From contig JBKHIT010000019.1 of NCBI GenBank assembly GCA_046538485.1, positions 16,114-80,113 of the forward strand: a stretch of 64,000 nt of DNA, read 5' to 3'. The DNA is from Candidatus Brocadiia bacterium. GTDB lineage: Bacteria; Planctomycetota; Brocadiia; SM23-32. The notes beneath the pieces are model-generated. The model did not search any database and had not been told where the DNA came from. It worked only from the letters and a program-made list of their open reading frames with translations. Of this stretch, positions 6,362 through 20,514 are shown piece after piece (positions within the stretch are counted from its first letter, which is position 1; every line of letters begins with the position of its first letter). The position numbers were made by a program, and so were the translations under genes.

Positions 6362-8017
6362 ATGAAACACGATAATTATAAAGAGAATCAGGACGGAAGA
6401 GACTGGTGTCCACTGCCCGACGATCTGATGTCGCGGCTACCGCCATGGGTTTGTTCCCCGTGGCTATTCCCGGTGGTCGGGGTTCTGGCTCTTTTCTGGT
6501 TTTTAATCCGCGTGATTCCAAAACCCACTCGTGCGCGCTATCCGTGTCAGCGGGTGGCGATGCCGGTGGCGTTTGGATTTCTCGGATGGATCGGGGGCAT
6601 GCTGGCGTCCGTGACGTCGTTCCGTCGCATGAAAGGTTTTTTGCGTAAGGGCCGGTATGTTCTGGCTGTTTTTTGTGTCGTCGGGGTCGCAGTCGGCGCA
6701 TGGTTTGCAATTGATCAAATTGCGCCGGAGCGTTTCCTTTGGGCGGATACGGTGGAACATTTTGTTCCGTCTGACAAACCGAATGATCCTATGGGTCGCG
6801 GCAGAGGGATAAATCCCGGTCGGGTGGTATGGGTGCGTGATATGGGAGCGACCAGATGGGATGGAAAGACCGGGCATTGGTGGGATGCCGAAAGCATCAA
6901 TCAGAACGTTGTTGACAAGATGGTATCGATGGGGCTGCGACGGCTCACCGGAAAGAAAGAAGACTCAACGGCGTGGGAAGCGCTTTTCCGGCATTTCAAC
7001 CGGAGCAAAAAGGGGAATGATGCGGGGTATCGGAAGGGAGAAAAAATTGCAATAAAAGTGAATTTCAACAATTCGGGGTACAGATGGAAGGGGAATGGTC
7101 TGAATACCAGCCCCCAGATGATCCTTGCATTGCTGAGACAGCTGATTGAAAAGGCAGGGATACCTGAAGATGAAATCACGGTATATGACGCATCTCGACT
7201 CATAGGAGATCCCGTATGGAAGCTTTGTCATGGTGCATTCCCGGGGGTCAGGTTTGTCGATAGAGAGGGCAAAAAGGGACGCATTAAGGCCCGCCCTGAC
7301 AGGAGCGTAGCTGTTCATTACGCTGACACATCCCTGCCCGATAGCGGTAAAACATTCTTGCCAAAGTGTGTGACGGGAGCTCGTTATTTGATAAATTTGG
7401 CGCTTTTGAAGGGGCACAGCCTGGCTGGTGTGACATTTAACGCGAAGAATCATTTTGGTTCTGTGTGGCGCGAGGCGGACAAGGACAAGTGGAATGCGGG
7501 TTGGTCTCCGGGGCATATGCATGAAACTGTTTCTGTCCACCAATACAGGGACTTTCCGCCGCGAGAATTGGGCACGTACACTCCATTGGTGGAGCTTATG
7601 GGCCACGCGCATCTCGGTGGGAAAACGCTGCTTTTCTTTATTGAGGGTCTTTATGGTGCTCCGCATCAGAGCTGCGAGCCTGAGGAGTGGGAGTCGGAGC
7701 CCTTTAACGGAAACTGGCCGGCGAGCATACTTGTTTCACAGGACCATGTGGCTATCGAGTCTGTGGGTCTTGATTTTTGCCGTTCCGAGCCGACCCTTAA
7801 GAAATACGTCCGCGGGGCGGTGGATAATTACCTTCACGAAGCGGCTGAAGCCAAAAAACCACCCTCTGGCTCTCAGTATGATCCGGAAGGAGATGAGACG
7901 GGTTTGGGTAGCCTGGGAGTCCACGAGCACTGGAACGACGTCCAGAGAAAGCAATACTCGAGGGATCTTGGGCGTGACCACGGTATAGAACTGATGCGGG
8001 TGGAAAACAAAGAGTAA
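6362..8017 (+). CDS. DUF362-domain protein
   Basis: KPTRARYPCQ N-terminal motif, GINPGRVVW, IAIKVN, LKGH..AGVT..KNHFG; exact start uncertain. Confidence 0.8.
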   Translation: MKHDNYKENQDGRDWCPLPDDLMSRLPPWVCSPWLFPVVGVLALFWFLIRVIPKPTRARYPCQRVAMPVAFGFLGWIGGMLASVTSFRRMKGFLRKGRYVLAVFCVVGVAVGAWFAIDQIAPERFLWADTVEHFVPSDKPNDPMGRGRGINPGRVVWVRDMGATRWDGKTGHWWDAESINQNVVDKMVSMGLRRLTGKKEDSTAWEALFRHFNRSKKGNDAGYRKGEKIAIKVNFNNSGYRWKGNGLNTSPQMILALLRQLIEKAGIPEDEITVYDASRLIGDPVWKLCHGAFPGVRFVDREGKKGRIKARPDRSVAVHYADTSLPDSGKTFLPKCVTGARYLINLALLKGHSLAGVTFNAKNHFGSVWREADKDKWNAGWSPGHMHETVSVHQYRDFPPRELGTYTPLVELMGHAHLGGKTLLFFIEGLYGAPHQSCEPEEWESEPFNGNWPASILVSQDHVAIESVGLDFCRSEPTLKKYVRGAVDNYLHEAAEAKKPPSGSQYDPEGDETGLGSLGVHEHWNDVQRKQYSRDLGRDHGIELMRVENKE

Positions 8018-8072
8018 CAGGCTGCGTTTGGACAAGGCCATAACCTGCCGTGTCGTCAACATTCCTGCTGTA

Positions 8073-9452
8073 TTATTGTTGTTCTGTCATCCATGCCTGG
8101 CGAATCTCGCCGGCCAGATAGAAGGAGCCGGTGATGCAGACGACATCGGTGGGCTCCGCGTCATTGAGCGCGGTGCTGAGGGCCTCAGTGGGTGATTTGA
8201 TTGCTCGGACATTTTGTATGCCGGCAACTTTTGCAGTCGACGCGAGGGTTGTGGGGGTTGCCGCCCGTGGAGAATCAAATTGTGTGGTTATTATTTGTCT
8301 GGCGACGGGGGAAATGAGGCCGAGCATAGCCGAATAAGCTTTGTCCTCGGCCGATGCGTAAATAAAATGGACAACTCGTTCCGGGAAGTGTGTATTCAGG
8401 GCGGCCAGTAAGGCTTTGATGGACTGTTTTGTGTGGGCGGCGTCGAGGATTAAGGCGGGATTGCGATCGAGCAATTCCACGCGTCCAGGCCACCGGCATT
8501 GCTCTATACCTTTTCTGATGGCGTCTGGATGCAAATCTAGTTCCTTGCGGTTGACAAGACAGTCGAGAACGCCCACGGCCGTTGCAGAATTCTCCACCTG
8601 GTGGCGTCCAAGCAAAGAACAGGTCAATTCGCGATGATTGCGGAGGGGGGTTGCTAAGGAAAATCGCCACCCGACCGGAGCTTCGGGGTCACCCTGTGTT
8701 GCGACAAGAGGCTCGGCTGAATGAATCTCAATTTGTTGACCTAATTGCCAGGCAGGGCACTTCAGTTCCCGGGCACGCGTTCTGATGGCCTCCAAAGCTT
8801 TGGGAAACGGTTGGTGCCCCACAATAACAGGAACGCCCGGTTTGAGAATTCCGGCTTTCTCAGCGGCAATCTGCCGGGGAGTTGTGCCGAGTTTATCGGT
8901 ATGGTCCATTCCGATAGGTGTAATGACACAACACCGCGGTTCGACGACATTTGTAGAATCGAGTCGACCACCAAGTCCGACTTCCATAATTGTCCAATCA
9001 GCTTGTTTCTGGCGAAAATATGAAAGTGCGAGAACCGTCAGAATCTCGAAGTATGTCGGGGAAGACTGAGGGCCATCCTTTTTCATCTGTTCGATTTCCG
9101 GACGGAGTTTCGCAAGGGTCTGACAGAAATCCCGCTCGATAATTGGTTCTCCGTCAAAACGGATACGTTCGCGGATACTGACGAGATGGGGAGATGTGTG
9201 GAATCCCGAGAGCTGCCGGCCGTTGCGGAGGCAGCTGTCAATGAATGCTCCTGTGGTTCCTTTGCCTTTTGTGCCAGCGATATGAATTACAGGCAAACCA
9301 TGATGAGGATTGCCAATGCGGTTGAGGAGGGCTTCAGTACGTGCAAGGTTAAAAGTTTTATTGGTGTACTCAACCCGCGTGGTTTGTTCATAGTTGGCAT
9401 TTTTGTCGAGATACTTTTCGGCTTGTTCTAATGACGGGAAGATGTTTGACAA
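8073..9452 (-). CDS. folC: bifunctional folylpolyglutamate synthase/dihydrofolate synthase
   Basis: HIAGTKGKGTT, TSPHL..RERI, EVGLGGRLDSTN, WPGR, LDAAH, GSFYLAG; TTG start at 9452 inferred. Confidence 0.95.
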   Translation of the reverse strand: MSNIFPSLEQAEKYLDKNANYEQTTRVEYTNKTFNLARTEALLNRIGNPHHGLPVIHIAGTKGKGTTGAFIDSCLRNGRQLSGFHTSPHLVSIRERIRFDGEPIIERDFCQTLAKLRPEIEQMKKDGPQSSPTYFEILTVLALSYFRQKQADWTIMEVGLGGRLDSTNVVEPRCCVITPIGMDHTDKLGTTPRQIAAEKAGILKPGVPVIVGHQPFPKALEAIRTRARELKCPAWQLGQQIEIHSAEPLVATQGDPEAPVGWRFSLATPLRNHRELTCSLLGRHQVENSATAVGVLDCLVNRKELDLHPDAIRKGIEQCRWPGRVELLDRNPALILDAAHTKQSIKALLAALNTHFPERVVHFIYASAEDKAYSAMLGLISPVARQIITTQFDSPRAATPTTLASTAKVAGIQNVRAIKSPTEALSTALNDAEPTDVVCITGSFYLAGEIRQAWMTEQQ

Positions 9453-9598
9453 TTTCTTATGCTTTACGGTCTGAGCTGAATTAGTGATGGTGAGACAGCA
9501 ATGGGCAGAAACCAATCCCTTCAGGGCGAGGGCGGAGAAGTTTTCAAATAATGGGAGGTGGAAAGTTACAAAAATTGTTGAACCGTTTACTGCTGTTC

Positions 9599-10429
9599 TT
9601 ACTCTTTTTCATGCTCCGCTTCAGCTTCAGGAGGTGGTGTTTCGAGAGCCCCGGTATTTTCTTTTATTATCTCGAAGATTCGCACTCCGATGCCGGTCAT
9701 TACACTTGTAAGCATCCCGCAGAGCATCATGATGAGGGCCATAGCAGAAGTTTCCATCAAAAAATCCCTCAGGCGTTTAATAGCAAAGGCAGATTTTCGC
9801 GGCGGGCCAAAGGGGTTGACTGGCCCCGAAGGCACCTTGAATAATGTGCACAAAAGGGTGAGGACAAGAACGAGAATAATAATTCCAATGAGAGAATTTC
9901 GGACTTTGTCGAGAGGTACGCCGGCCCCGAGAGACAGGCTGAACAGGAGAAGAAACAGGACATAGAGGCGGAAGTTGCCCCATTCGGCCTGAAATACGTT
10001 ACGCACAAGGCTGACTATAAGAAAACCGAGGCCTTTTATAAAGACGTGAAATCCGCCGGCGTCGAAAGAAGAGATTTCGGGTGCTTCCAGATCAAGGGAA
10101 AGCGGCGAACCGAGGGCAGCATTGGCACCCTGGAGGACTAAAGCACAGATAAAAAGCGGGGCAATTGGTACCATAAACTTCGAAACCGTTGCAAAGCCTT
10201 CCCCGGTGAAAGCCACCTCGCGTTCAGAAATATGATATATATTTGCGCGGTCGACTGTTGCGCCTGTGAGCATGGCAGTAACGGCGATTGCGAACTTTCT
10301 GATAATAACTCCCGGGGCGGCTATCCAGAGCAGGAATTTGTAACTAAAGGAACTGTGGAGCAGAGAGTGCATCATAGCTCCAATGAGCAAACAAAGACTG
10401 AGCCAGATGAACATCGCCACGAATTCCAT
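9599..10429 (-). CDS. multi-pass membrane protein resembling M50-like metalloproteases but lacking HExxH
   Basis: about 6-7 TM segments; APGVII-RKFAI-AVTAMLTGATV aligns by eye to PGV(I/V)-HELSH-xxxxLTGAKV; IAPLF motif. Confidence 0.7.
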   Translation of the reverse strand: MEFVAMFIWLSLCLLIGAMMHSLLHSSFSYKFLLWIAAPGVIIRKFAIAVTAMLTGATVDRANIYHISEREVAFTGEGFATVSKFMVPIAPLFICALVLQGANAALGSPLSLDLEAPEISSFDAGGFHVFIKGLGFLIVSLVRNVFQAEWGNFRLYVLFLLLFSLSLGAGVPLDKVRNSLIGIIILVLVLTLLCTLFKVPSGPVNPFGPPRKSAFAIKRLRDFLMETSAMALIMMLCGMLTSVMTGIGVRIFEIIKENTGALETPPPEAEAEHEKE

Positions 10430-10784
10430 GACAATATCCTTAAAAATCGCACACTGAATCCAGAAAAAGACATTCCTGAAAATTGATCATGCTACCGAGA
10501 CTAGTTTCCCACAGTCGCCCCCTTAATGTCAACAGGGAAATATTACAATCCAGCTTTTGAGTGGTGTTCTGGAGGCCCTTAAGGGTTGAAGAACTGGGCG
10601 GGCACTCCATATAATGTGGAGAAAACTGTATTGCATGCCCCGAGATGGGCCCCCGAATGCTTTGAAGAATGCAGTTTGGCTGTTTACCTGCGGCCTGTCA
10701 GTCGTTAAAATAAAGATGGCTCTTGGAAGTTTCACTTAGCCCGCGGAAAAACCGCGGCAGGTAGATGCGTTATAAGGCTAAATA

Positions 10785-13700
10785 ATGGGTAAAGAAGCTC
10801 CACAAACATTGGGACGGTGCAAATTGCAGAGGAAGCTCGGCGAAGGTGCTATGGGTGCGGTATACCTTGCGGAGCATACGACGTTGCAGATCCCCGTAGC
10901 GGTCAAGCTGCTTCCGGAACGCATGCTCAAATCCAGCGACCAAAGCGCCGAAAGATTTATGCAGGAAGCGCGCATTGCTGCCAAACTCCATCATCCCAAT
11001 ATTGTCAGGGTGTATGACTGCGGGCAGGAAAGCGGTCTTTACTATCTTGTGATGGATTATATACAGGGCGAGACAGTCGCCGACCGGCTGCTTCGCGAAG
11101 GGCGGTTCGACTGGGAAGAAGGGGTGAGAATCGTCGTTTCTGTTGCTGGCGGACTTCATTCGGCCGCAGATAAGGGAGTTATACACCGTGATATAAAGCC
11201 AGATAATATTATGCTTGATACCGAAGACGTGCCACTTATCACGGATCTCGGTGTCGCAAAACTGGCCGACGTGACCGATTCGTCCGAGACGAAGGATGAC
11301 GCAATGTTGGGCACGCCTTTTTATATGAGCCCGGAACAAGTGCGGGACGCACGGGATGCTGATGTTCGTTCTGATATCTACTCGCTGGGCGCCAGTCTTT
11401 ATCATATGGTCTGTGGCGAACCACCATTTCAGGGGGGAAGCATATATGAGGTTATGAATAAACAGTTGCGCGATCCTGTTCCTTCGCCGCGCGAAAAAGT
11501 GCCCGAAATCCCCGATACCCTGTGCGACGTACTGGCGAAGACGATGGCCAAAAGTGCTGATCACCGTTACCAGGATTACGCTGAGTTGATCGAAGACCTG
11601 GGGCATGTGCTTGCCGGCGAACCCGTTTCAGCTGAAGGGGCCGAACGTGAGTTGCAAAAAGAGGCTGTTTCGGAAGGGGAAACCCTTGAACAGCTGCGTG
11701 GCGGGGAGATAAGCGGAGAAGAGATTCCAGAGCCTGCCACCGCTGTGGCAGCACAAGTATTAGGGATGACTGGAATTATTCTGTTTGTCGGCGGCATTGT
11801 CTTTTCTTACCGGGGTGTTCTTAATATGCAAAAGTACGCGGGCTGGGGGTTTGGCGCATTGGCTCTGATATTAACGTGTGTTACTATTTTCAGGAAAATC
11901 AGGCCCAAGAGCGAAAAAATAACAGAGGAAACCGCTGACAGAAGTCGGGAAAGAAAACTGTCATTGTTGAGTATGCTTACCGAAGGACTCGGTTTTTCAA
12001 CCCCGGACTTCTATATATCGACAAAAGAAAGTGCCCGGTCTTTTTGCTCCGCACTCGGACGAAAGTGCAATATTGTGCTTTCAGAGGAGAGGTTGTTGAA
12101 GTACGAAATGACCGATATGGAGGTGACTACTCTGTTGTGTCAAAAATTGGGGGAATTCTACTATGGTCACGCCCTGCTGATGACAGTTCTTGATGGGCCC
12201 TTACGATTTTTCAACTTCGTTATGAAGCCCATTGATCGTCTGTCGATTTGGGCTGTTGATCGGGTAAGCCGTAGAGGCAGGAAATTGAGCGCGATGGCGA
12301 TAACACTGTGTTTCGTCGTGTTTGCTGCTGTCCTCGGGGTGGTGCTTTTCTTTAATACCTCATTTGGGTTTGGGGTTTTATTTCTACTTCTTGCTGGATT
12401 CCTGGCGCGCACAACGAAACGATATAGCCGGTACGCGTGCGATTCTTTTGCGGCGGCCGTACTTGCTGATACGGAACCGATAAAGTCGATCTGTGCGAAA
12501 GAAGCCATGCTGGAACCTCAGGGCTTGAAAACGATGTTGATTCGGGCAGACGTTGAATTGCCAAAAGAAGATGATGATGAAGAAATGATTCTCGAAACAG
12601 GGGAAATAATTAAATTCGCGTCTTTCTATTCTGGGAAGGAATGGCAGGCCGGGACTATTTCACGGTGGGAGGAGTTTTGGACCGGTCATGCGAAACCGGC
12701 GCTACGTATTAATATGGTTTCGGATGTCGAACCTGAACAGGCACCGACAATTCCCAAAGTGATAAATGACATTGTTCGGGAATGGGGGAGGATGCTCGGA
12801 GGAAGCAGTGAAGCACCGGCAACGATGATACCTGAGCCGGATAGAACGATGCCCTCGGTTCTGCTGGGAGGAATCGGAGGAATTCTTTTGAGCGCGGGCA
12901 CTTTTTTGCTGCTTTTGCAAGAACAACAGGTCTACCTTGCATTTGCACTCGGTATCGTTCTTGTATCACTTACGCTGGGAGTGGTGGTGGGTCGGGCGCA
13001 CCGCGAAAAAGAAAGCAGTCCACACGACCTTGTGCTTTCTGTTCTTGCTTCATTCGTAGGAGTGACCGTGCCCTATGTGCTGTTTTTCGGTTTTTTGCCG
13101 GGGCTCATGTACTCTCAGGCCATTCTTCAAGTGCCGACGGTTTTTATATTGAGCGGAGTTCTTATTTCGGCTGGTATTCGTCTGGCCTTAAGCAGACCCA
13201 AGAAACGCGTTGAAGAAGAGTTGGAAGAAGAGGCAGAAGGGGAAGCCGCAAAAAGTGAAGAAGAGTGGACGATCGAGGGTGAAGAGGCTGGGGAAGCAGC
13301 GGGCTGGTTCGATGAATTAAGCCTGGAGGAGGGCGAGGAAGAGGAAGAAGTTGGCGAAGAAGAGTTTGGTTCTGGGGAGCCCGATTTTGGCGAGAAAGAG
13401 GGCCTCGAAGGTCCGGGGGCAGAGGAGGAGATGATCGATGAAGGAGAGAAGGAAGAGATAGAAGAGGAAGAAATTGGGGAAGAAGAGTTTGATTCTGAGG
13501 AGCCCGAGTTTGGCGAGCAAGAGGGGCTTGAAGGTCCGGGGGCAGAGGAGGAGATGATCGATGAAGAAGAGAAGGAAGAGATAGAAGAGGAAGAAATTGG
13601 GGAAGAAGAGTTTCGTTCTGAGGAGCCCGAGTTTGGCGAGCAAGAGGGGCTTGAAGGTCCGGGGGCAGAGGAGGAGATGATCGATGAAGAAGAGAAGGAA

Positions 13701-14897
13701 GAGATAGAAGAGGAAGAAGTTGGAGAAGAAGAGTTTGGTTCTGAGGAGGCCCATTTTGGCGAGCAAGAGGGGCTCGAAGGTGCAGGGGCAGAGGAGGAGA
13801 TGGTCGGTGAAGAAGAGGGGGAAGAGATAGAAGAGGATGAAGAAGTCGGTGGATTTGAGGAAGAGGCTGAAGATGGCGTAGAAGGCCAGAAAGTTGCTGC
13901 TACGAAGGATGTCAAGACAGAACAAGATCAGGGAACAGAAAGCACGTCGGAAGAGGAACATTTAGCAAGACAAGAGGGTATGGAAGAGGCAGAGAGTGGA
14001 GAATATGGCGAAGCAATGAGCGGAACAACCGAGAAGGGGGAATGGGAAGGGGCAGAAACGGAAGAAACGGAAGGCGAGGAGGCCAGTGTAGATTATAAGG
14101 CGGTAGATGTAGAAGAGCGGGGAGAGACGGAGGAGCAAACGCCAGAGGATGAAGTTGGCGTTGACGAGGCTGCCCCGGGAGAAGAGGAGTGGGATATTCA
14201 GGGCGAGGAAGAGGAAACGCAAGAAGAGGCGGAGCAACCGGGAGCTGGTTCGGAGATTCAGGGTGGAGAGCACGGTGAGCCGGAAGAGACAGAGAATTTG
14301 CCGGGCCGAACTGGAGTTCGTCGGGGCGGAAGCAACAGGGGAAAGTCGGAGGAGTCCGAAGAAACTGGGGAGGCGAGGTGGGAAGCTGGAGGGACCGGGA
14401 CGGAGGGAACGCCGGAAGATTCAGAGGATCAGTATGGAGAGAGTGAGAAAGCCCAAAGAGGCTATGATTTTGAGGGTGAGGGGAAATTGACTCAACATCA
14501 GAAAACTGAACAAGAAGCGGAGAGCGGAGAGGGGACGGGGATAGAACAAGGGGAGACAGAGGGGCGAAAGTGGAGCGAGGCGGATGAGGCCGATTACGGT
14601 GAGGCGCAAGAAACTGAAACGGAAAACACACAGGCCGAGCAAGTGAGGGGGGACGATGGAGGTGGCCCTGAAACGTTCAGGCCGAGGGAATACGGGGCAG
14701 ACCAGGGTGATGCTGATATGGAGCTGGAAGGTGAGCATGCGGGGGTAGGAGACGACGAAAGCCTGGTATCTGAGAAGCTGGACGATGATTTTCAGTCAGA
14801 CGATGACGAAGCAAGCAGTGGGCAGGAAGATATTGCTGCAGAGCAAGAAGACAGCGAGGAACAGGACGAAGGGAACGAATGGGAAGGGATGTTGTAA
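10785..14897 (+). CDS. Ser/Thr protein kinase fused to a degenerate M48/HtpX-like domain, TM helices and a Glu-rich tail
   Basis: LGEGAMGAV, VAVK, HRDIKPDN, TDLG, GTPFYMSPEQ; HtpX-like segment about 11955-12715; acidic tail from about 13210. Confidence 0.92.
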   Translation: MGKEAPQTLGRCKLQRKLGEGAMGAVYLAEHTTLQIPVAVKLLPERMLKSSDQSAERFMQEARIAAKLHHPNIVRVYDCGQESGLYYLVMDYIQGETVADRLLREGRFDWEEGVRIVVSVAGGLHSAADKGVIHRDIKPDNIMLDTEDVPLITDLGVAKLADVTDSSETKDDAMLGTPFYMSPEQVRDARDADVRSDIYSLGASLYHMVCGEPPFQGGSIYEVMNKQLRDPVPSPREKVPEIPDTLCDVLAKTMAKSADHRYQDYAELIEDLGHVLAGEPVSAEGAERELQKEAVSEGETLEQLRGGEISGEEIPEPATAVAAQVLGMTGIILFVGGIVFSYRGVLNMQKYAGWGFGALALILTCVTIFRKIRPKSEKITEETADRSRERKLSLLSMLTEGLGFSTPDFYISTKESARSFCSALGRKCNIVLSEERLLKYEMTDMEVTTLLCQKLGEFYYGHALLMTVLDGPLRFFNFVMKPIDRLSIWAVDRVSRRGRKLSAMAITLCFVVFAAVLGVVLFFNTSFGFGVLFLLLAGFLARTTKRYSRYACDSFAAAVLADTEPIKSICAKEAMLEPQGLKTMLIRADVELPKEDDDEEMILETGEIIKFASFYSGKEWQAGTISRWEEFWTGHAKPALRINMVSDVEPEQAPTIPKVINDIVREWGRMLGGSSEAPATMIPEPDRTMPSVLLGGIGGILLSAGTFLLLLQEQQVYLAFALGIVLVSLTLGVVVGRAHREKESSPHDLVLSVLASFVGVTVPYVLFFGFLPGLMYSQAILQVPTVFILSGVLISAGIRLALSRPKKRVEEELEEEAEGEAAKSEEEWTIEGEEAGEAAGWFDELSLEEGEEEEEVGEEEFGSGEPDFGEKEGLEGPGAEEEMIDEGEKEEIEEEEIGEEEFDSEEPEFGEQEGLEGPGAEEEMIDEEEKEEIEEEEIGEEEFRSEEPEFGEQEGLEGPGAEEEMIDEEEKEEIEEEEVGEEEFGSEEAHFGEQEGLEGAGAEEEMVGEEEGEEIEEDEEVGGFEEEAEDGVEGQKVAATKDVKTEQDQGTESTSEEEHLARQEGMEEAESGEYGEAMSGTTEKGEWEGAETEETEGEEASVDYKAVDVEERGETEEQTPEDEVGVDEAAPGEEEWDIQGEEEETQEEAEQPGAGSEIQGGEHGEPEETENLPGRTGVRRGGSNRGKSEESEETGEARWEAGGTGTEGTPEDSEDQYGESEKAQRGYDFEGEGKLTQHQKTEQEAESGEGTGIEQGETEGRKWSEADEADYGEAQETETENTQAEQVRGDDGGGPETFRPREYGADQGDADMELEGEHAGVGDDESLVSEKLDDDFQSDDDEASSGQEDIAAEQEDSEEQDEGNEWEGML
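13338..13829 (+). repeat. intragenic tandem repeat, 4 x 123 bp (41 aa)
   Basis: units start at 13338, 13461, 13584 and 13707; consensus EEEE(I/V)GEEEFxSEEPxFGEQEGLEGPGAEEEMIDEEEKEEI. Confidence 0.95.
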
Positions 14898-14970
14898 ACG
14901 CTATTAAGCCGGGAAATAAGATTTTACAGTAAACCGAGGGCCGGATATCGCAGGTTCGTATCGCGGGTTA

Positions 14971-16404
14971 TCAGGGTTGATTGGGAGCCGGGGCCGGCGC
15001 TGTGGTGCTGGGAGGGGCAGACGGCCTCATGCTCATCATCATGAAATACGGGATGGCCATCTGGCACAGGAGCAATTCAGGAGATAACTTTGCTATTACA
15101 TCTTTGTCCTTCGTGGTTGTATTCCAGAAGGTTGTGCCCTCGCGGTATTTATCGAATATGTTGCCGACCATGCTGGCCATGCGGGGGTTGTCCAGTTGTT
15201 TGAGCATCAGTTCACGCGTGAGCTTTTCCGCGGTATCCAGGGAACCGCTGAGCGAGGACGCGGTGCCGGTATCGGGACAATGGGCGATCACGGAAATCTT
15301 CTGATTTTTCGCGGACATAGCTTCAAAACTCTCTCCCCGGATAATACTCCGCCCGATCATCAGCCAGGCTGATGCCACTTCAACTTCGGGATTATCCGGT
15401 TGGTTTTGAATGTCTTCATCCGCGTCGTTCAGAACTTCTTGCAGGAGATCCTTCTGATTTTTTGAAAGCGCTCCCGAAGCGGCCCAGGGGGAAGCACCGC
15501 TCCTGACAGTTTCAAAAGCAGGTTTGGCGTTGGGGGGAAGGGAGGCGGCTTTCCCTGATTCTATATCTTTCAGAGCCATTTCCATGTGTTCGGTTCCGTT
15601 AGTCCCTCCTACGCTGAAAACGAGAGTGTTCTTATCCACGAGGCAAATAGCGGGACCGTAACGTTTGTGATAGACGGTCTGGTTGCCGATTTGGGCTTTA
15701 TCCATATTGTTTTCACAGACTTTCTCCAGTTTCTCGGGGTCGCAGAGCCCTTTGAGCACGAAGGCTGCATAGCCCGTCTCCTGTCCTATGTTTGTGGGAA
15801 AAAGGCCGACAACCCCGTCGATTCGGAGGTTTCCCACTGTTTGAAGCGTTTTGAGAAGGGCCTTATTGGTTTCGGGAATGGCCTTTTTGGCCTGCTGGGG
15901 ATACTTTTGGAGGAGTTTGTCGAGTGTCGGCAGATTTTTCCGCATCATATCGAAATGATACTGGAGTTTTTTGCCCCGCGACTTGTTCGTCAGGACCGTA
16001 CACAAAACGAAACCGATATCTGCGGGCACGTTTTTGCTCAGTGTTTGAAGAACTTTCTTGCGATCGGGCCGGGGTAGGTCTTTTCCTTCGATGACCGCGA
16101 TCGCCTGTGCTGCAGCATCGCTGAGCGTTATATCGTCGCCCCGCGCAATTTTTTGCAGTTGAGGTATGGCTTTCTCAACCTTCATTTTTTCCAGAGCCCG
16201 AATGGCAAGTAGTTTTTTCACATACGCGTTTTCGGTATCGGGGCCGGCATCAAGCAAGTTCAGGAGATTCTCCTGGTTGGTGGTGATTTGCATTGTCTGC
16301 AATGTTTCAGTAGGTTCCAGGAAAGACGCCAGGTCACCAGGAGGTGCCCCGGTAATATTGGTGGCCAGGAGTAAAAACCACATTGGCATGATTGACATGA
16401 ACAT
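14971..16404 (-). CDS. exported hypothetical protein with N-terminal HEAT-like repeats
   Basis: hydrophobic N-terminus; LAIRALEKMKVEKAIPQL..AAAQAIAVI HEAT-like pattern; AAAGGA RBS. Confidence 0.7.
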   Translation of the reverse strand: MFMSIMPMWFLLLATNITGAPPGDLASFLEPTETLQTMQITTNQENLLNLLDAGPDTENAYVKKLLAIRALEKMKVEKAIPQLQKIARGDDITLSDAAAQAIAVIEGKDLPRPDRKKVLQTLSKNVPADIGFVLCTVLTNKSRGKKLQYHFDMMRKNLPTLDKLLQKYPQQAKKAIPETNKALLKTLQTVGNLRIDGVVGLFPTNIGQETGYAAFVLKGLCDPEKLEKVCENNMDKAQIGNQTVYHKRYGPAICLVDKNTLVFSVGGTNGTEHMEMALKDIESGKAASLPPNAKPAFETVRSGASPWAASGALSKNQKDLLQEVLNDADEDIQNQPDNPEVEVASAWLMIGRSIIRGESFEAMSAKNQKISVIAHCPDTGTASSLSGSLDTAEKLTRELMLKQLDNPRMASMVGNIFDKYREGTTFWNTTTKDKDVIAKLSPELLLCQMAIPYFMMMSMRPSAPPSTTAPAPAPNQP

Positions 16405-16610: not shown

Positions 16611-19610
16611 TTACGATTGACCGGGGAAAAGGGGCGTTTGCCAGGCGTCCTTGAGCTCCTTGAGAGGGGTATCAATGACGGGGTAACCCTCAAGCCCGGT
16701 TATTGTTAACGTTGTGTTTTCGACAAGCCGTCCGATTTCCCGGGCAGGCAGCCCACTGAAAATTTCTTCAAATTGCTCTTTGTGCTCCGGGCGTACCTCG
16801 ACCAGGAAACGGCTGTTGGATTCGCTAAACAGAAGAACATCGTCGCGCTCAACCGTTGCATCACCGCTTCGGGGTATTTCTCGTAGCGCAATCTCAAGAC
16901 CAATCTCGCCGGCGAACGCCATTTCGGCGGCAGCGACGGCGAGTCCTCCCTCAGACAGGTCGTGACAGGACCGAACGAGGCCCTGCTGGTTGGCCCGCGA
17001 TATATTCTCCATGATGGTCCGTGCGGAATCGGCGCGGACCTGTGGGACGCTTTGACCGAGGAGACCGAAGAGTTCGTAGTAATGGGATCCGCCGAGTTCG
17101 GGCCATGTTCCTCCGACCATATAGAGGGAGTTCCCTGTGTTTTTCAGGTCCATACTTATGGCGGATTTAACATCATCCATTACGCAAATCGCACTGATAA
17201 GCAAGGTTGGGGGGATGGCGATGGTTTCTTCGCCGGTATTGAATTCATTATTCAAGCTATCTTTGCCGCTGATGAATGGGACGCGGAAACCTTTAGCGAA
17301 ATCGTAACACGCCAGACAGGCCCTGACGAGCGTGCCGAGCTGCTCAGGTTTGCGGGTATTGCCCCAAGAAAAGTTGTCGAGTATTGCGGCCCGTTGCAAA
17401 TTACCACCCACTGCCACCAGATTTCTCAGGGCCTCATCAATGGCGCTGGAGGCGCTGTGGTAGGTGTCGATATCGCCGTATTTTGGGTTCATCCCGCAGG
17501 ATATTGCAACTCCTTTTGGGGAACCAAGCACGGGTGCGAGGACGACCCCATCACCGGGCCCATCATTTGCGACGCCCACGAGTGGTTTCAGAACAGTCTG
17601 CCCCTGAACCTCGTGGTCGTACTGGCGTATGATCCATTCTTTGGAGCGGACATTGGGGGCGGCAAGTATTTTTTTTAGATCTTCTGTGTATTCATCTTGA
17701 CCGTTCAAAAGTTCTTCACAGGCGGCTTTTTCCCGGTCGGAAGCAGACTTCATCGTTTCAGGCAGAAGCGGATCCGGGTATTCTTCCGGCACCCAGCGTG
17801 CCGTTTCAGTGAAACGGGGCAGCCCCTCGTGCACGAAATCCATATCCATTTCAGCGACGTTCCTGCCCTGGTATTTGACGGTGAGGGTGTCATCATCGGT
17901 GAACCGTCCGATAACGGTGGCTTCGACGTCTTCGCTCTCAAAGATGTCCAGAATTTCGTCAAGGTTTTTGGGGGGAACTGAGAGCACCATTCGTTCCTGG
18001 GCTTCGGAGATCCAGGTTTCGGTGTAGGATAGCCCCTCGTATTTGAGCGGGACGTCGGCGATTTCCGCTTCTACCCCGGTATGTTCGCCCATTTCTCCCA
18101 CCGCGCAGCTCAGTCCACCTGCACCACAATCCGTGATGCAGGAAAACAACCCACGATCGCGGGCTTTCAGGAGTGTATCGAGGACTTTTTTCTCGGTGAT
18201 GGGATTGCCGATTTGGACGGCGCCGCTTGAGATATCTTCGCTTTCGCTGGTCAGTTCGACGGATGAGAAGGTAGCGCCGTGAATCCCGTCACGCCCCGTG
18301 CGTCCGCCGACCACGAGCACATAATCGCCGGGGTTGACCTTTTTTTCGACCTGGTCAGCGGGAATTAGTCCGACATCGCCGCAGTAGACGAGGCAATTCC
18401 CGGTGTAGCGTTCGTCAAAATAGACCGCACCGTTGGCCGTCGGGATACCCATCCGGTTTCCGTAGTCGCGCACGCCGCTGACGACGCCCTTCAGAACGCG
18501 TTTGGGGTGGAGTGCTCCCGGGGGAACCTGTTCTTCGGGCATGTCGGGGGGACCAAAACAAAACACATCGGTATTCATGATCGGTTTGGCTCCAAGGCCC
18601 GTTCCCAACGGGTCACGGATAACACCGCCGATACCGGTATTAGCGCCCCCATATGGTTCAATGGCACTCGGATGGTTATGCGTTTCGACCTTGAAACAGA
18701 CAGCCTCTCCGTCGCCGAATTCTATCACCCCAGCATTATCGACGAACACGCTGAGGCACCAGGACCTGTCGAGTTCACGTGTGACGCGGGCGATTGTTTC
18801 TTTCAGAAGATTGTCAATAATGAGCCGTCCGTTTTTATCTTCATAATCCTCCCATCCACTCGGGACAGGTCCTGTGTAGGTGACGTGCCCTTTGAGTGTT
18901 TTATGCACGCAGTGTTCGCTCCAGCTCTGGGCAAGAATCTCCAGTTCAAGGTCAGTTGGATCACGACCAAGATCGGAGAAATGCTGCTGGATCGTTTTCA
19001 TCTCGTCCAGCGTCAAAGATAAGACGCCTTCCTTGCTGATACGCATTAACTCAGCGTCGTCTGCTTCGCGAAGAGGAACGGTTTTTTTATCAAATTCATA
19101 GTCGAGAGTTATGAGTGGGTATTTAACATCGGGTTCGTTGATATGGACTTCTTCGATGGTGGTGTTAGCAAGGGACTTTGTGGCAATTCGCTCAAGCTGC
19201 TGTTGAGATATATCACCGTGCAAAAAGTATTTCTGTGCTGTACGAATGGAACTAATTTTTTCGCCCAGCCCCAGATCGGCGGCGCCTTTCATGGCGCTTT
19301 GTTGAACCGGGTCCATGACGCCTTGTTTGCGGCTGATCTCAATTGTCTGAGCGTCCCGGGTTTCGGCCCAATCCCAGGTAATATCATCTCCGTTGCAAAT
19401 CCGGTACTCTTGCACGACGGGATCGAGGAAGAGCTGTTCCGAGAGCTGGCGGACTTCTTCTTCATTAAGTTTCCCGTCGACTATATAGATGTCGACAGAG
19501 TTTATCTCGATTACCGATTCTGCCCCCAGATCGCGGGCCTCGGCAAGTGCTCTGAGTCCTTCGGGGTCTTTGGCGTCAGGTTTGTGGATGACCTCAATCC
19601 GATACTGCAT
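16611..19610 (-). CDS. purL: phosphoribosylformylglycinamidine synthase subunit PurL with N-terminal PurS-like domains
   Basis: SWSEHCVHK, KVETHNHPSAIEPYGGA, DCGAGG, SEAQERM, ISGKDSLNN, HDLSEGGL; ATG at 19610. Confidence 0.96.
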   Translation of the reverse strand: MQYRIEVIHKPDAKDPEGLRALAEARDLGAESVIEINSVDIYIVDGKLNEEEVRQLSEQLFLDPVVQEYRICNGDDITWDWAETRDAQTIEISRKQGVMDPVQQSAMKGAADLGLGEKISSIRTAQKYFLHGDISQQQLERIATKSLANTTIEEVHINEPDVKYPLITLDYEFDKKTVPLREADDAELMRISKEGVLSLTLDEMKTIQQHFSDLGRDPTDLELEILAQSWSEHCVHKTLKGHVTYTGPVPSGWEDYEDKNGRLIIDNLLKETIARVTRELDRSWCLSVFVDNAGVIEFGDGEAVCFKVETHNHPSAIEPYGGANTGIGGVIRDPLGTGLGAKPIMNTDVFCFGPPDMPEEQVPPGALHPKRVLKGVVSGVRDYGNRMGIPTANGAVYFDERYTGNCLVYCGDVGLIPADQVEKKVNPGDYVLVVGGRTGRDGIHGATFSSVELTSESEDISSGAVQIGNPITEKKVLDTLLKARDRGLFSCITDCGAGGLSCAVGEMGEHTGVEAEIADVPLKYEGLSYTETWISEAQERMVLSVPPKNLDEILDIFESEDVEATVIGRFTDDDTLTVKYQGRNVAEMDMDFVHEGLPRFTETARWVPEEYPDPLLPETMKSASDREKAACEELLNGQDEYTEDLKKILAAPNVRSKEWIIRQYDHEVQGQTVLKPLVGVANDGPGDGVVLAPVLGSPKGVAISCGMNPKYGDIDTYHSASSAIDEALRNLVAVGGNLQRAAILDNFSWGNTRKPEQLGTLVRACLACYDFAKGFRVPFISGKDSLNNEFNTGEETIAIPPTLLISAICVMDDVKSAISMDLKNTGNSLYMVGGTWPELGGSHYYELFGLLGQSVPQVRADSARTIMENISRANQQGLVRSCHDLSEGGLAVAAAEMAFAGEIGLEIALREIPRSGDATVERDDVLLFSESNSRFLVEVRPEHKEQFEEIFSGLPAREIGRLVENTTLTITGLEGYPVIDTPLKELKDAWQTPLFPGQS

Positions 19611-19623
19611 TGGGGACCTCGTC

Positions 19624-20514
19624 TTACTGTGTATTTGGATTGTCTTTTTTATCCCGGCGTAGCCGTAGCATTTTATCGCGTTTTTGTTTGGATGCGTCAA
19701 AACGCTGCTCAAGTTTTTGCAGTTGACCTTGTGTTAAGAATTCATTCATTTGCCGAAGTTCATCGATAAGCGTATCAATCCCTTCGGCAATGGCATCGAC
19801 ATTTGTAGCGCATATATCACGCCAGAGCCCAGGATCACCACTGGCGATTCGAGTTGTATCAATTAGCCCGCCGCCGGCGAATTCCCCCTGTTGGGGAGTG
19901 ACGGTCTGCATAAGGGCAGCTGCGGCGATATGAGGCAGATGACTGATCCGAGCGACAAGCCTGTCATGCTCCGCCGGTTTCATATAGCTGACGCGAGCGC
20001 CGAGCTTCTCCCACATTTGTGTAATCCTCTGCCATTCCCGTGACACGGATTTCGAGGTTGGGCATATTATACAAACGCTGCTTTCGAACAAATGTTCGTC
20101 GGCATTGCCAGCGCCACGTTTTTCACTTCCGGCCATAGGATGGGTGGGAACAAAGCTTATCCCCTTGTCGGAAGGCTGAGTTTGATTTATAGCTTTAATG
20201 ACGCTTTGTTTTGTACTGGCGACTTCGGTGAGAATACTATCAGCGGGCATCGCGTCGATAATTGTCGGGGCAAGCCGAATTATGGTTGAGATAGGGGTGG
20301 CGAGGATTACAAGATCAGCTTCCTGAACGCCAGCAGCAGGATCAAGTGAAGTTTCGTCGATAGCGCCCACATCAACGGCGATATCAAGTGAACTCTGCCG
20401 TCGGCCGATCCCGATCACATGGCGTGCCAGCTCACGACGGCGAAGCGCCAGACCAATTGACCCCCCGATAAGGCCAGGCCCGACGATTGAAACAGTGTCG
20501 AAAAGTTTTTCCAA
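19624..20514 (-). CDS. tyrA: prephenate/arogenate dehydrogenase
   Basis: GPGLIGGS Rossmann motif, HPMAGSE, HD..A.ISHLPH, DTTRIA. Confidence 0.93.
   Translation of the reverse strand: MEKLFDTVSIVGPGLIGGSIGLALRRRELARHVIGIGRRQSSLDIAVDVGAIDETSLDPAAGVQEADLVILATPISTIIRLAPTIIDAMPADSILTEVASTKQSVIKAINQTQPSDKGISFVPTHPMAGSEKRGAGNADEHLFESSVCIICPTSKSVSREWQRITQMWEKLGARVSYMKPAEHDRLVARISHLPHIAAAALMQTVTPQQGEFAGGGLIDTTRIASGDPGLWRDICATNVDAIAEGIDTLIDELRQMNEFLTQGQLQKLEQRFDASKQKRDKMLRLRRDKKDNPNTQ

Follow-up and report, generated by a model that had tools for sequence, protein, structure and literature searches.

A probable receptor-type Ser/Thr kinase with a zinc-less HtpX-type membrane module, and a neighbouring, probably dead M50B-like protein, in an uncultured Brocadiia family

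Two divergent genes in a 64,000-nucleotide stretch of a Candidatus Brocadiia bacterium (assembly GCA_046538485.1, contig JBKHIT010000019.1, positions 16,114 to 80,113; hereafter the window) encode membrane proteins in which the HExxH motif of zinc proteases is replaced by other residues. The long gene (10785..14897, plus strand, 1370 aa) is a fusion of a Hanks-type Ser/Thr kinase with a dead M48-like module. The small gene (9599..10429, minus strand, 276 aa) starts towards the kinase gene and encodes a protein for which there is weak support as a catalytically dead member of an M50B-like family of polytopic membrane proteins. An earlier note on this DNA had described the head-to-head arrangement across 355 bp (10430..10784) and two full-length open reading frames (ORFs), and this description holds; the ORF calls contain no internal stop in either gene. 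On balance, we favour the view that these are two separate protease homologues, anciently inactivated and selected for, which came to lie side by side through a lineage-specific rearrangement; the kinase would be fused to a sensor or scaffold module and the small protein would have a non-proteolytic role. Throughout, f1 denotes the window's own family, an uncultured higher-GC lineage within the class, f2 to f11 denote the other families of the class, and G000 is the genome of the window (5.19 Mb, 143 contigs, 88% complete). All carriers are uncultured organisms, and co-occurrence counts are inflated by related and incomplete genomes.

The kinase domain spans residues 14–262 (10824..11570, plus strand; Pfam PF00069, E 1.1e-47). 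Its catalytic motifs are intact, as claimed before: the G-loop at residues 19–26, K41, E61, HRD at 134–136, N141, DLG at 154–156 and SPE at 182–184. In the 21 aligned fusions, all sequences that include this region conserve these motifs. The HtpX/M48-fold module follows at residues ~318–650 (11736..12734, plus strand), as delimited by the AlphaFold2 (AF2) model, structure matches and profile matches to PF01435 proteins. In the model, two transmembrane helices lead into a gluzincin-like domain, which is followed by two further transmembrane helices and a helical subdomain. A C-terminal bundle of four transmembrane helices is formed by residues ~688–830 (12846..13274, plus strand). Its structure matches to helical bundles at Z 7–10.6 are not diagnostic; the bundle is common to active TPR-containing M48 relatives, and the profile match to them reaches about position 497. 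The search for further kinase and M48-like fusions that the earlier note had proposed brought up a kinase-fusion clade, 29 representatives of which cover the motif region. The fusion module occurs in 21 of 30 f1 genomes and in none from the other families of the class. The f1 relatives are always ORFs of 750–1100 aa that start with the kinase.

The HtpX/M48-like identity of the fused module, proposed from the sequence alone, is well supported: profile, scanned relatives and fold matches agree. The window fusion protein has no match to PF01435 in Pfam at E<=1, and the HtpX model of NCBIfam gives a weak match over residues ~310–830 (E 4.2e-4, 19.8 bits). Neither window protein matches a protease model in Pfam; the protease ancestry rests on profiles, relatives and folds. 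A profile built from the fused modules of 20 fusions matches PDB chain 3cqb, a solved HtpX fragment, at E 0.0033. In a word-index search among 5.8 billion proteins, the same profile finds two PF01435 (HtpX) proteins, with E values of 7.2e-5 and 5.9e-4; with the module as a single sequence, this search, which is nearly blind here, returned no homologue. An exhaustive hidden Markov model search of 1.84 billion representatives gave 985 matches at E<=1e-3, 47 of them at E<=1e-30. The matches fall into three tiers. The kinase-fusion clade itself is followed at E 1e-44 to 1e-16 by proteins of 520–750 aa in which the match spans almost the entire module and Peptidase_M48 is found at E 1e-18 to 1e-30, and then by ordinary HtpX proteins of ~300 aa. 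Peptidase_M48 (PF01435) was found in all 27 scanned non-kinase matches, and five scanned proteins of the second tier have N-terminal TPR repeats.

The predicted structure points in the same direction. The AF2 model of the module has a predicted local distance difference test (pLDDT) score of 81.3 and a predicted template modelling score of 0.84. With VIA-align, it matches 3cqb at Z 10.8 (root-mean-square deviation 2.5 A, 96 of 101 residues), Ste24p at Z 10.2 (207 residues), ZMPSTE24 at Z 9.7, BepA at Z 8.8 and BlaR1 at Z 7.5 (199 residues). Foldseek ranks ZMPSTE24 first and assigns both ZMPSTE24 and 3cqb a probability of 1.00 with weak E values (0.025–0.43); no PDB entry reached E<=0.001.

At the HExxH columns the window fusion has QKLGE (residues 453–457, 12141..12155, plus strand), a replacement that had been read correctly: the LAQxLAG stretch of the fusion profile, which corresponds to QKLGE in the window, aligns to AHEVSH of 3cqb and to AHELGH of active relatives. 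HExxH is absent from all 21 aligned f1 fusions and from 29 of 29 kinase-clade representatives that cover the motif, and it is kept in 96 of 100 other M48 relatives that cover it. The first HExxH column is highly variable among the fusions (Q, R, H, L, S or G). Further downstream, FEREREYLAD of the active relatives is matched by FERxSRxAAD in the fusions, and in the window the residues RYSRYACD (546–553, 12420..12443, plus strand) align with REREYLAD. The Glu of the REY.AD part, which we take to be the third M48 zinc ligand, corresponds to R549. Across the kinase clade this position is mostly R, otherwise V, Q, C, L, A or D, and is E in 5 of 29 representatives. The module is a genuine M48 homologue with a dead centre, and judged from these residues the fusion is ruled out as a canonical zinc protease.

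In the small protein, RKFAI (residues 44–48, 10286..10300, minus strand) replaces HExxH as the earlier note had stated, and it aligns exactly onto HELSH of the relatives. Members from f5, f8, f10 and f7 have HELSH (one HDLSH) exactly where f1 members have RK[F/L]xx. R44 and K45 are invariant, and the pattern RK[F/L]xx is present in 18 of 18 aligned f1 small proteins with identities of 32–53%. A second change lies in VSKFMV (residues 82–87, 10169..10186, minus strand), where K84 occupies the position of an Asp in an 'FDF' motif. This Asp is invariant across eight aligned HELSH relatives and may be a candidate for their third metal ligand. Among the matches listed, all but one f1 member have K or R here.

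Relatives of the small protein were detected in 41 of 61 genomes by a single-sequence genome search and in 103 of 132 genomes of the class by a profile search. The profile matched 20 of 30 genomes in f1, 42 of 47 in f5, 27 of 28 in f10, 9 of 14 in f8, 2 of 2 in f9, and the single genomes of f11 and f7; f2, f3, f4 and f6 together gave 0 of 8. Named records with relatives are the anammox planctomycetes Candidatus Brocadia, Kuenenia, Jettenia and Scalindua. The f1 forms and the HELSH forms are clearly homologous by profile comparison (hhalign probability 98.6%, E 1.2e-15, 207 columns). All 18 outgroup ORFs from candidate phyla radiation bacteria and archaea that cover the motif region have HELSH. 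In a quick maximum-likelihood tree, supported by the Shimodaira–Hasegawa-like approximate likelihood ratio test (SH-aLRT) only, 16 of 16 f1 rows group together in a single clade with an SH-aLRT support of 100, and the stem of this clade is long, at 2.28 changes per site. The three f9 copies (L049, L050, L051) carry the mutually different degenerate motifs KGFSY, HVLSH and ARILSQ. On this tree, the dead state requires at least three changes, once in f1 and twice in f9. The invariant Arg-Lys together with the long stem branch suggests that the f1 small proteins may have gained a new role, other than proteolysis, in connection with the folC operon.

The assignment of the small protein to M50-like proteases stands at the level of the M50B-like family, weakly, and does not extend to the site-2 protease fold itself. 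The 276-aa protein has no Pfam or NCBIfam match at E<=1. Six of six HELSH relatives from the class match Peptidase_M50B (PF13398) at E 9e-6 to 2e-3 with 18–26 bits, at or below the cut-off of 26 bits, and three of five outgroup relatives score above this cut-off (36.4, 29.9 and 26.6 bits). The HELSH profile aligns to the CBS-domain M50 protease of G000 (hhalign 85%, E 6.3e-6), and HELSH falls on HELCH. In a protein atlas, the cluster nearest to the small protein is named 'Peptidase M50B-like' (feature score 0.90, structural TM-score 0.64). The AF2 model of the small protein (pLDDT 86.9) matches RseP at Z 5.0 and 4.8, SpoIVFB at Z 4.6 and the M. jannaschii protease MjS2P at Z 4.1 over residues ~25–190, values that are within the noise for helical proteins. 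Foldseek against the PDB returned nothing at E<=0.001, its list being helical noise of the GPCR type, and a PDB sequence search with the HELSH profile gave no match at E<=10. A word-index search with the small protein retrieved two relatives, and the method is nearly blind here.

As a separate observation, in loci of the HELSH members, which are apparently active and come from anammox and related planctomycetes (L020–L027, L053–L062; for example L024:7995-8753 and 8731-9330) a gene for an O6-alkylguanine-DNA alkyltransferase (PF01035) lies directly downstream on the same strand in 18 of 21 cases. The two genes often overlap, which makes a tight and unexplained pairing of a metalloprotease-like membrane gene with a DNA-repair gene.

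Both genes were proposed to be retained pseudoenzymes, and this reading is borne out by intact frames, by purifying selection and by the loss of the motif in 18 of 18 and 21 of 21 f1 sequences. The ratio of non-synonymous to synonymous substitution rates (dN/dS) was taken from within-genus pairs of other f1 genera because synonymous sites are saturated between G000 and its nearest relatives, which share 46–53% identity. For the small gene the values are 0.28 and 0.29, and for the M48-like module 0.19, 0.24 and 0.21, so that the dead domains are maintained and are not in recent decay. No close orthologue with HExxH was found among the 18 aligned small proteins or the 21 aligned fusions of f1; the motif persists only in relatives from other lineages, with 17–21% alignment identity. 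In the fusions, M48 stretches away from the metal site are kept, namely GD after the motif helix, FER..AD and P.AAERLN, and residues R546, D553, R641 and N643 are invariant. From these alignments we conclude that the loss of the motif is old and fixed in both proteins.

The proposal that the two genes form a dedicated divergent pair is for the most part not supported by the comparison of genomes. Within the 30 genomes of f1, 18 have both genes, 2 only the small gene, 3 only the kinase and 7 neither, a co-occurrence that is no more than suggestive. Conserved linkage is not seen: among 19 genomes with both genes, the two are adjacent in 3, apart in 14, and in 2 the contig ends there. The adjacent cases are divergent in G000 and G020 and tandem in G013. 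In 12 f1 loci with ~2–8 kb of flanking sequence, the kinase was found near the small gene twice, in G020 in divergent orientation and in G013 on the same strand at a distance of 1.8 kb, and in 20 further kinase loci no small-family gene was found near the kinase. Other neighbours are more conserved. In 11 of 12 f1 loci, the small gene is followed on its own strand by folC. The commonest neighbour of the kinase is a gene for a TPR-PAS protein, found in 11 of 17 f1 loci (L030–L048; for example L033:6148-8502) and mostly head to head. This protein of ~790 aa combines TPR repeats and several PAS domains with a region that weakly resembles a receiver domain, and is a likelier signalling partner of the kinase than the small protein; in G000, genes related to it are located on another contig.

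For the long gene, our favoured reading is as follows. It encodes a polytopic, receptor-type Hanks Ser/Thr kinase in which everything outside the kinase is a complete HtpX-type (M48) membrane module. This module was inherited from a subfamily of TPR-M48 proteases, and the kinase stands at the N-terminal place at which five of the scanned relatives have TPR repeats. The active site of HtpX faces the cytoplasm. As two transmembrane helices separate the kinase from the gluzincin-like domain, both are predicted to be cytoplasmic. The dead module may keep its binding groove and act at the cytoplasmic membrane face as a non-cleaving sensor or scaffold that controls the kinase. We put this role forward tentatively, as the likeliest option although at less than even odds, from the domain architecture. 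The small gene is probably co-transcribed with folC, and Arg-Lys in place of His-Glu points to a new function of its product outside proteolysis.

Several points weigh against the view of two separate, selected-for pseudoproteases. The match of the small protein to the M50 fold is at noise level (RseP Z 5.0), neither window protein reaches any protease model of Pfam, and the sensor role of the M48 module is drawn from architecture alone. The two genes co-occur in f1 more often than not, 18 of 30 genomes having both and 7 neither, and they are adjacent in three genera, in two orientations. A dedicated two-gene signalling system, in which the small protein would for example present or gate a ligand for the pseudoprotease module of the kinase, could build on this adjacency (divergent in G000 and G020, tandem in G013), on joint presence and joint non-detection, and on the fact that both products are membrane pseudoproteases whose dead forms are largely confined to f1. 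A 539-base contig from a run of a second study (X2) also spans the junction of the two genes, yet its ~98% identity is at strain level and not independent. We nevertheless regard such a system as distinctly unlikely. The genes are not neighbours in 14 of 19 genomes and lie ~540 kb apart on one contig in G008, the small gene occurs alone in G005 (92% complete) and G027 and the kinase alone in G010 (96% complete), and each gene has its own conserved neighbour. The co-occurrence is a suggestive hint at a functional link, to which we give little weight because the genomes are related and incomplete. A complex prediction of the small protein with the M48-like module scored 0.00 in both runs and is no evidence either way. 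The two genes are probably not a dedicated pair. It is hardly credible that one or both are decaying pseudogenes or mis-called ORFs: the absent catalytic motifs and the lack of a Pfam or NCBIfam match for the small protein would fit decay, but the frames are intact, orthologues are present in at least 14 genera, dN/dS is 0.19–0.29, the AF2 models are confident (pLDDT 81 and 87), and the indels listed for a second strain are confined to the intergenic region.

For the fusion, the main rival to a sensor or scaffold role is that the dead M48 module is a mere membrane anchor or oligomerisation scaffold that senses nothing and that partners, for example the TPR-PAS protein, provide the input. The high variability of the HExxH columns, which makes a single conserved site for a ligand at the former metal centre less likely, and a sensor-type gene as commonest neighbour would both suit an anchor. 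We consider it rather unlikely, given that the whole module of ~500 aa is kept at dN/dS ~0.2, including M48 stretches off the metal site, and that the four invariant residues R546, D553, R641 and N643 would be superfluous for a simple anchor. A role of the kinase in anti-phage defence, as a PD-T4-6 or Mad6-like kinase in a defence island, is very improbable. The PD-T4-6 and mad6 models of PADLOC match residues ~3–324 with E values down to 2.3e-84, and MADS6 of NCBIfam matches at E 4.3e-48, but these matches span only the generic kinase domain. Moreover, the gene family is inherited across the whole of f1 (21 of 30 genomes), the flanking genes are of the housekeeping type (metG, folC, purL, tyrA-like, pheST), and the small protein and the gene downstream have no PADLOC match. 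More specific than the proposed sensor or scaffold role, and unlikely in our view, is a membrane-proteostasis receptor: the HtpX pseudoprotease would capture misfolded or unassembled membrane segments, or a peptide, uncut at the cytoplasmic face and would signal by Ser/Thr phosphorylation, and the M50B-like protein may have been recruited to it in G000, G013 and G020.

Among known systems, HtpX (MEROPS M48B; Vibrio parahaemolyticus domain 3cqb) is similar to the fusion module in its fold and in the order of transmembrane helices, gluzincin domain and transmembrane helices, and the signature stretches that flank the active site are kept in the fusion. In contrast to HtpX, the fusion lacks HExxH, has Arg at the presumed third ligand, and has gained an N-terminal Hanks kinase, an extra helical subdomain, a bundle of four transmembrane helices and, in G000, an acidic tail. 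The nearest active relatives are the TPR-M48 proteases (P0044–P0061), which match almost the whole module of ~500 residues (positions ~13–497, E 1e-44 to 1e-23). AHELGH and FEREREYLAD are intact in them, whereas the kinase clade has lost both and has a kinase where five of them carry TPR repeats. This apparently uncharacterised M48 subfamily of 520–750 aa shares the extended membrane module of the fusions with HExxH intact, in several cases together with TPR repeats; one copy with HExxH is apparently present in the f1 genome G014 (G014:C109:2764-4170).

BlaR1 and MecR1 (M56) are likewise polytopic gluzincins of the M48/M56 kind that serve signalling and not bulk proteolysis, and the fold match to BlaR1 (Z 7.5) is partial. 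In BlaR1 the zinc site is active, an extracellular domain that binds penicillin is the sensor, and the output is proteolysis. In the fusion, by comparison, the site is dead, Pfam finds no penicillin-binding sensor domain, and the output would be phosphorylation. Kinases of the PknB type share with the fusion an N-terminal cytoplasmic kinase followed by a membrane region. The model PknB_PASTA_kin matches residues 10–293 at E 6e-85, with 286 bits below its cut-off of 450. Unlike these kinases, the fusion has no PASTA repeats, and its membrane part is an eight-helix pseudoprotease module instead of a single transmembrane helix with an extracellular sensor. For the small protein, the comparison is with site-2 proteases and Peptidase_M50B (RseP, SpoIVFB, PF13398): its active relatives have HExxH on the corresponding transmembrane helix, followed by ..GxxV, whereas the small protein has RKFAI, neither PDZ nor CBS domains and no Pfam match. 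The iRhoms and Derlins are eukaryotic dead protease folds that are kept for regulation or sensing. In bacteria, CspA and CspC of Clostridioides difficile are described as pseudoproteases (PMC7200643). With the iRhoms, the Derlins, CspA and CspC, only the concept is shared; the folds and organisms are unrelated and none is fused to a kinase.

The fusion gene ends in an acidic tail of 540 aa with 34% Glu and 7% Asp (13275..14894, plus strand). The tail contains a 123-bp repeat (13338-13842, plus strand; 4.1 copies, 93% matches) that encodes a Glu-rich unit of 41 residues. No contig from metagenome runs, a possible source run included, spans this repeat; all break there, so the copy number in the window is uncertain and may be an assembly estimate. 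Long antisense ORFs over the kinase gene (10770-11606 and 13127-14631, minus strand) resemble composition artefacts and not genes, and equivalents of these ORFs cluster together among high-GC relatives. The 355-bp intergenic region has two sigma-70-like matches on the plus strand, by consensus match only.

Housekeeping genes flank the two genes. On one side are metG, genes for a GGDEF and a DUF362 protein, and folC; the folC-like Mur-ligase gene (8073..9515, minus strand; Pfam Mur_ligase_M and Mur_ligase_C) follows the small gene after 83 bp in the same orientation. On the other side follow a convergent ORF downstream of the kinase gene (14971-16404, minus strand; 477 aa) with a hydrophobic N-terminus and a weak HEAT-repeat match (E 0.004), a fused purS-purL gene (16611-19712, minus strand; a single ORF of 1033 aa with PurS, the FGAR-AT linker and the PurL AIRS domains), a tyrA-like prephenate dehydrogenase gene and pheT/pheS. 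Elsewhere, G000 has three canonical M48 genes and one M50 protease, and the dead copies are therefore extra paralogues and not replacements.

DNA that is 90–99% similar to window positions 8000–15000 is present in metagenome runs from a microbial mat (study P1) and a salt lake (study P2). The four indels listed for the contigs from runs X2 and X4 (~98% identity) all sit in the intergenic region and none in either gene. Within the kinase gene, 24 strain differences (10 synonymous, 14 non-synonymous) are among the 40 listed of 226, a partial and selected list from which we draw no inference.

The kinase fusion is the distinctive part of this locus and represents, in our reading, a new receptor-kinase architecture; in open-access full text and bioRxiv, we found no paper that describes a Hanks kinase fused to an M48/HtpX-like domain. 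Bacterial Hanks kinases carry many sensor modules, and pseudoprotease regulators are mostly eukaryotic. The two ideas, receptor kinase and pseudoprotease, meet in a kinase that has a conserved, zinc-less HtpX module as its entire membrane part. The uncultured status of all carriers sets a practical limit to work on it. If the receptor for membrane proteostasis were real, it would be a prokaryotic functional analogue of the kinases of the unfolded-protein response and of pseudoprotease signalling of the iRhom type. The M50B-like scaffold, whose site was lost on at least three occasions in a single class, is useful for asking what such scaffolds do without catalysis. If the dead M48 module senses the state of membrane proteins or peptides, bacterial Ser/Thr signalling would gain a new input logic, and the fusion would be a clear case from nature of a protease that became a receptor.

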